Assembly (NCBI RefSeq): GCF_003334305.1 | Contig: NZ_QOWS01000006.1 | From: Escherichia coli | GTDB taxonomy: Bacteria; Pseudomonadota; Gammaproteobacteria; Enterobacterales; Enterobacteriaceae | Length of the DNA: 64,000 nt | Strand: one strand, 5' to 3' | Part shown: positions 5,632-5,976 of the stretch, in pieces | Position numbering within the stretch: the stretch's first letter is position 1 | Layout of the letters: each line of letters begins with the position of its first letter | Notes under the pieces: generated by a model | The model's database searches: none | Told to the model about the DNA's origin: nothing | The model's input: only the letters and a program-made list of their open reading frames with translations | Translations under genes and position numbers: made by a program

Positions 5632-5976
5632 TAGTCAGACTACTGGTTTGAAGAATGACTATTCATGACACAAATGTTATAAGCAGATGCTAGATATTAA
5701 TGAGCAATGATATTTGTTACCAAAATTTACAACCATTGTTCATTAGGACGCCTATTGTGCACTTTAAGGGCTTTTGAACAAATTAAATTTTCTTAATTCA
5801 AAATTAAGCAAAAATAAATTCACAAGTGCAATTGGTTAGGGTATGGCGATGGGATTGATATTTATCTGCGGGAATTTATATTATGTTTCTGCAAAAATGT
5901 TTAAACTAAAATTTTTATTAAGGAAAGAGAGGATGTATGATTTTCAGAAAATATTTATATTCGTAATATAAATAAA
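5632..5976 (-). promoter_or_regulatory. AT-rich upstream control region of the yad fimbrial operon
   Basis: About 345 bp of strongly AT-rich non-coding DNA directly upstream of yadN; typical of silenced fimbrial promoters (inference). Confidence 0.4.

Follow-up and report, generated by a model that had tools for sequence, protein, structure and literature searches.

The AT-rich folK–yadN intergenic region of Escherichia coli as a probable H-NS silencing platform ahead of the yad fimbrial operon

What does a long, strongly AT-rich stretch of noncoding DNA do immediately upstream of a chaperone-usher operon, and is its composition a regulatory property or simply an inheritance? The question is raised by the intergenic region between folK and yadN in a 64,000-nt stretch of E. 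coli DNA (contig NZ_QOWS01000006.1 of assembly GCF_003334305.1; hereafter the window), for which a preliminary description had proposed a cryptic fimbrial operon under silencing by nucleoid proteins. We assign a probability of roughly 0.85 to the reading that this gap serves the Yad chaperone-usher system as promoter and regulatory region and acts as a xenogeneic silencing platform. The locus as such is an already described instance in which H-NS silences a fimbrial operon, with published work on both K-12 and ExPEC strains.

Position, composition and variation of the folK–yadN gap

Annotation of identical sequences arranges the genes of this part of the window on the minus strand as the series yadK, yadL, yadM, htrE, yadV, yadN, folK and pcnB onward. 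The major fimbrial subunit of 194 aa is encoded by yadN (5023–5607; RefSeq WP_000038438.1), the first gene of yadN-yadV-htrE-yadMLKC. Upstream of it, folK (5977–6456) is the last gene of a co-directional pcnB-folK unit, and its stop codon—TAA in the window and in nine of the ten other alleles compared, TGA in eco-241—bounds the gap. Both the RefSeq annotation of the identical E2865 and A7 sequences and the base composition mark out the 369 bp in between (5608–5976, minus strand) as the AT-rich control region of the yad operon. The locus is widespread: positions 5400–6200 were matched in 5,392 of 5,426 complete E. coli genomes, with 100% identity to several of them, e.g. E2865, and 93.2% identity to K-12 derivatives. 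The allele of the window was found at ≥99% identity in 1,536 of the 5,426. Over its first 7,695 bases, the window shows no mismatch to strain A7 (NZ_CP028767.1), the source of which is orangutan faeces.

A noncoding stretch before yadN thus exists where it was first described, but the left edge given to it, 5632, is 24 bp short. This edge results from taking the longest ORF (5023–5631), which begins at an upstream in-frame ATG at 5631, as yadN. The start is placed at 5607 instead by the RefSeq annotation, by an in-frame TAA that closes the upstream ATG in K-12, and by the spacing of a conserved AAGGA (5613–5617), located 6–10 nt ahead of the ATG at 5607.

The AT-richness of the gap is far beyond chance. 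With 27.4% GC (27.8% for positions 5632–5976), compared with 51.7% for the whole window, it is the lowest-GC stretch among the 63,632 possible ones of 369 bp, and a GC content below 33% over this length is reached only here within the window. For the comparison with other intergenic regions, gene coordinates were transferred from E2865 across two indels. The 33 other intergenic regions with a length of 30 bp or above have a mean GC content of 46% (sd 6.5; pooled 45.4%); among the eleven that reach 150 bp, GC varies between 36 and 53%, and the gap has a z of about −2.9. Only the 104-bp yadV–yadN spacer (4919–5022, 26% GC) and one 30-bp spacer are equally AT-rich. Windowed composition therefore bears out the initial description of the region as strongly AT-rich, its 72.6% AT standing against 48% for the window and about 55% for the other intergenic DNA. 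The gap also exceeds the window average 2.3-fold in TpA steps, 3.4-fold in A/T tracts of at least 4 nt and 10-fold in pure-A/T hexamers. The entire yad part of the window has a reduced GC content (42.9% versus 52.7% for the remainder), and the gap lies 15 points below even the operon body. Elsewhere in the window, two further differences from E2865 were noted: a small indel in the hrpB–mrcB spacer (13291–13334; net +63 bp in the window), and the absence of yaeI between yaeH and dapD (32692–33010), where about 130 bp of unrelated sequence replace about 850 bp.

Comparison between alleles shows how this composition is kept. Gaps were extracted from ten other genomes, and eight, including that of the window, precede a yadN-type gene. 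These eight form four divergent groups (K-12-like, PSS-16, eco-241/S4 and Nissle/GPEC1352), between which 60–72% of bases are shared; all have 26–31% GC (lowest figure 25.6%) and measure 347–370 bp. The K-12 gap, likewise flanked by folK and yadN, has 369 bp and 26.6% GC and aligns gap-free with that of the window at 90% identity. A different fimbrial subunit gene occupies the site in the three remaining genomes, and their gaps (348 bp and 23–24% GC in ATCC 8739 and 504239; 601 bp and 28.5% GC in 06-00048) share just 38–58% of bases with the Yad-type gaps. In these three strains, the set of major subunit, chaperone and usher beside folK is another one altogether. Two further rearrangements were seen at the gap: in strain S171-1, an IS1 element sits at its folK-proximal end and the segment from yadN through part of yadC is lost; in strain 113, the end of a Mu-like prophage adjoins folK.

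In a sliding comparison with K-12, positions ~1–6450 of the window form a mosaic of divergence reaching up to 12.5% per 200 bp. It spans the yad operon, the gap and folK and ends near the folK/pcnB junction, with less than 1% divergence from pcnB onward. Because the mosaic extends through folK, this core gene belongs to the polymorphic segment. Divergence at third codon positions amounts to 8.7% in yadN (the protein being identical), 13.8% in folK and 2.4% in pcnB, and 10% of positions differ in the gap. Divergence at about the flanking synonymous level combined with steady composition and length agrees with a role in which base composition is what counts, as is the case for H-NS. The alignment thus suggests that composition rather than sequence is maintained in the gap, and that its sequence is under little constraint.

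H-NS silencing as the probable role of the gap

The silencing reading draws its support from three findings reported for orthologues: that H-NS occupies the locus, that yad is derepressed in hns mutants and that the proximal ~200 bp act as a promoter. In K-12, the yadN/folK region (156927_379, 379 bp) belongs to a set of 78 ‘promoter islands’ and is tagged as H-NS-bound ‘according to all studies’, namely the ChIP-chip studies of Grainger, Kahramanoglou and Oshima (PMC3661553, Table 1). The corresponding marks G, K and O for H-NS binding are assigned to yadN in a further paper, in which overproduction of SlyA increased yadN 2.4-fold (PMC5797941). Derepression of K-12 yad on loss of hns is attributed to an earlier report in the later papers that cite it. 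In CFT073, H-NS ChIP-seq is stated to cover the yad region, and a lux fusion carrying ~200 bases upstream of yadN was more than two orders of magnitude higher without hns, returning to baseline when hns was supplied in trans; all yad genes were moreover up in hns mutants of both CFT073 and EC958 (PMC13245861, 2026). Occupancy of the orthologous locus, on which the proposal of nucleoid-protein silencing depends, is hence on record for both K-12 and CFT073.

In terms of mechanism, the extreme A+T content, the frequent TpA steps and the A/T tracts would make the gap a favoured substrate for H-NS. Polymerising over it, H-NS would cover the σ70 promoter or promoters in the ~200 bp adjoining yadN, and its spread may reach the AT-rich body of the yad operon. 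Such coverage would keep yad transcription near zero in ordinary laboratory growth, and expression would need the silencing to be lifted. The reliefs reported in orthologous strains are loss of hns, overproduction of SlyA, low temperature or anaerobiosis with ArcA, and a serum cue; inhibition of Rho by bicyclomycin likewise increases yadN. As to temperature, anaerobiosis and serum, a later study credits Larsonneur 2016 with the influence of low temperature, of anaerobiosis and of ArcA on yad, and itself found the ExPEC yad promoter to be induced by serum via some factor (PMC13245861). An effect of LmiA on yadN is described as indirect only.

How far this can be carried over to the window depends on the alleles involved. 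The H-NS evidence comes from a K-12 allele that is 90% identical and from CFT073-like alleles of about 65% identity, and the window allele would be expected to behave like these orthologues. The CFT073 reporter (PMC13245861) covers the proximal ~200 bp only, the distal 170 bp lying outside. Silencing is also not absolute: in EHEC 86-24, yad is expressed from its native promoters in three transcription units (PMC11287998). Taken together with serum induction in ExPEC, this makes ‘cryptic’ a label that depends on strain and condition; within such limits, the interpretation given in the preliminary description is supported. Noncoding variants at yadN have been reported to change expression between strains, and alleles may hence differ quantitatively. 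As for sequence preferences of H-NS, its high-affinity motif TCGATAAATT occurs in the gap as a single site with two mismatches and none better (5969–5978), and no local enrichment of the motif was found there. Since H-NS binding does not need the motif, its lack weighs little; the missing enrichment weakens only the case for a discrete nucleation site.

Several known systems resemble the locus to different degrees. Closest is the K-12 yadN/folK region itself (Korea 2010, Panyukov and Ozoline 2013, Larsonneur 2016), which shares the ribosome-binding site and the proximal and distal conserved elements discussed below; it differs from the window by 10% substitutions and by the TAA closing the upstream ATG, whereas the window strain has a broken usher gene. 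The ExPEC yad promoter region lies at the same position and measures 361–363 bp in the Nissle and GPEC1352 alleles, with 25.6–29.6% GC. These alleles share the ribosome-binding site, a GTAA-N6-GTAA repeat and the distal 11-mer with the window, but at ~65% identity most of the gap is unalignable, and it is for the ExPEC allele only that behaviour was measured (PMC13245861). The control regions of the cryptic K-12 chaperone-usher operons sfm, ycb/elf and yeh, which also precede the gene for the major subunit, are likewise AT-rich and H-NS-repressed, and folD/sfmA figures among the promoter islands too; they are, however, unrelated sequences at other loci, likened here by description.

Alternative readings of the AT-rich gap

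If the gap were a passive compositional relic of a laterally exchanged low-GC fimbrial segment, its AT-richness would have no regulatory role. The low GC of the entire yad part, the mosaic of divergent alleles ending near the folK/pcnB junction and the evolution of the gap at about the synonymous rate are all in keeping with such an origin. The relic reading is nonetheless very unlikely to be sufficient: it leaves the 15-point GC difference from the operon body to be accounted for, drift alone would not predict 26–31% GC and similar length in eight alleles that share 60–72% of their bases, and reporter data from an orthologue place an H-NS-repressible promoter in the proximal part. Another idea assigns the gap mainly to the pcnB-folK transcript, as its 3′ end and terminator zone, and has yadN expressed chiefly by read-through. 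The co-directional arrangement of folK and yadN, the conserved block 15–37 nt past the folK stop and the increase of yadN upon inhibition of Rho by bicyclomycin would agree with it. Against this, the terminator scan predicted no intrinsic terminator on either strand of the gap, including the minus strand; the 110 nt nearest folK gave zero pairs when folded as an eight-allele consensus, leaving the distal block without conserved RNA structure; and an A-U hairpin of the window past folK, like the other single-sequence RNA folds of the gap, is no better than shuffles. A plasmid reporter with ~200 bp upstream of yadN is, moreover, active and H-NS-repressible without folK, and read-through as the chief source of yadN transcripts is accordingly most improbable. 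RfaH ops elements were also absent from the gap, and an 8-mer in htrE (2034–2041, minus strand) considered as ops was dismissed, the rest of ops being missing and the match being at chance level.

The gap might also hide an unannotated gene for a small protein or an sRNA. On the plus strand, antisense to yadN, two nested ORFs were seen, one of 42 aa (MAMGLIFICGNLYYVSAKMFKLKFLLRKERMYDFQKIFIFVI; 5843–5971) and one of 12 codons (5934–5972, ATG at 5934) with AGGAAAGAGAGG ahead; the best promoter-like site, TTGATA-16-TATATT (5855–5882), was assigned upstream of both. In K-12, however, the 42-aa frame stops after 24 codons and its changes are mostly nonsynonymous, while AR_0077 is without the start codon of the 12-codon ORF, whose ‘conserved’ residues just overlie the conserved DNA block. 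Small ORFs in the gap are not conserved between alleles on either strand, searches of 5300–6300 on both strands against Rfam 15 returned no match at E ≤1, and RNA folds were no better than shuffled sequence. Unconserved in K-12 or AR_0077, the two nested ORFs are probably not genes, and a hidden gene of any kind has only a very slim chance. Slimmer still is that of a phase-variation switch, be it a fimS-type invertible promoter or a pap-type switch based on Dam/Lrp methylation. Such switches are common among fimbrial operons, and fimS and pap are themselves long, H-NS-influenced regulatory regions upstream of fimbrial major-subunit genes. The yad gap is unlike them in having no conserved inverted repeats, recombinase genes, GATC sites or papI/papB-type genes. 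A perfect 12-nt inverted repeat (5801–5812/5983–5994) does flank 170 bp, but one arm lies within the folK coding sequence, K-12 has two noncompensating mismatches in it, and it is not kept in other alleles. The fimS type was rejected as this only long inverted repeat is not conserved and the locus has no recombinase gene; the pap type was rejected on account of zero GATC sites in 5608–5976 and of no small regulator genes, neither recombinase nor papI/papB-like genes having been found between folK and yadN. Yad is also stated not to be phase-variable (PMC13245861).

Putative promoters, conserved islands and the operon in this strain

Returning to the gap as an H-NS-silenced control region, the position of its promoter was approached by prediction. 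The equivalent of the K-12 promoter island 156927_379 (PMC3661553, Table 1) spans 5651–6029 of the window by gap-free alignment. Such islands were defined with PlatProm as stretches of 300 bp or more in which no fewer than eight start points are predicted per 100 bp; here, a heuristic σ70 matrix was used instead and gave 54 promoter-like sites per kb in 5651–6029 versus 7 per kb window-wide, an enrichment of about 8-fold. In a strict consensus scan, the count of promoter-like sites in the gap was not above that of dinucleotide-preserving shuffles, so their density follows from AT-richness, and 0 promoters were found on the yadN strand. Two candidate σ70 pairs can be named on this strand, TTGGTA (5718–5723)-18-TAATAT (5694–5699) from the heuristic matrix and TTGTTC (5776–5781)-16-CACAAT (5754–5759), which was read by hand from the alignment, its hexamer sequences being verified. 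A Reg-Seq preprint has yadN among its targets and gives no result for it.

Of the gap columns aligned across the eight alleles, 27% show no variation, and these cluster in three places on the yadN strand. One is the end of the 5′ UTR (5611–5631), with the 7-mers ATGGAAT (5625–5631) and AAGGATT (5611–5617), the latter being the ribosome-binding site; both are invariant in all eight alleles, and the island as a whole spans 5608–5641. Another is a proximal zone (5697–5770) with 35–50% invariant columns versus 0–10% in adjacent stretches. As it lies inside the ~200 bp that have H-NS-repressible activity in CFT073 (PMC13245861), this zone is the likely site of the core promoter. The third place is a distal block, GAATATAAATATTTTCTGAAAAT (5940–5962), which holds the longest invariant run of the alignment, the 11-mer GAATATAAATA (5952–5962; column-permutation p ~1e-4), followed by the palindrome ATTTTCTGAAAAT.

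Within the proximal zone, a direct repeat GTAAA-N5-GTAAC (5716–5730, minus strand) is located 109–123 nt upstream of the yadN ATG. Nine sites with at most one mismatch occur in the 64 kb, this one among them, and seven of the eight alleles have it at the homologous place with at most one mismatch. We take the repeat to resemble the tandem half-sites of OmpR-family regulators of the ArcA or CpxR type, which makes it a candidate site only. It is possible, if rather doubtful, that the repeat and the GAATATAAATA/ATTTTCTGAAAAT block are specific protein-binding sites beyond a generic H-NS platform and that the repeat is bound by such an OmpR-family counter-silencer; the repeat could also mark the site of action of the serum-responsive regulator. 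Entries for yadN, folK and htrE were all absent from the ArcA ChIP supplements of PMC3798270, and a literature search on Cpx and yadN found nothing specific.

Regarding the operon itself, htrE carries a nonsense codon relative to E2865 (TGG to TAG at 1654–1656, minus strand; W830*) that cuts the PapC_C domain (aa 781–845 of 866). This exact allele was found in 2 of the 2,676 complete genomes that have the segment, and in strain A7, identical to the window, PGAP labels htrE a pseudogene. With the C-terminal domain of the usher removed, the yad operon of the window strain probably cannot assemble fimbriae. Lesions of the operon vary by strain: in E2865, an internal stop makes a pseudogene of yadC, which encodes the tip adhesin, and in A7 this gene is intact. 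In a separate observation, the yadN–yadV spacer contains a hairpin with a 14-bp stem just past yadN (ACAGGGAATAGTGT…ATATTATTCCCTGT, then TTTT; 4942–4992, minus strand), which the terminator scan did not report; folding of the 121-nt spacer gave an MFE of −27.1 kcal/mol and a z of −2.84 versus shuffles. The hairpin resembles the attenuators or terminators often found behind genes for major fimbrial subunits and is in keeping with the three yad transcription units reported in EHEC (PMC11287998).

The broken usher gene renders the question of regulation partly moot for this particular genome. What the locus adds to the published cases of H-NS silencing is modest and comparative: alleles that have diverged nearly to the level of random sequence keep their composition, their length and three short islands. 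These conserved islands offer concrete targets in the search for the regulator by which the silencing of Yad by H-NS is relieved in serum.
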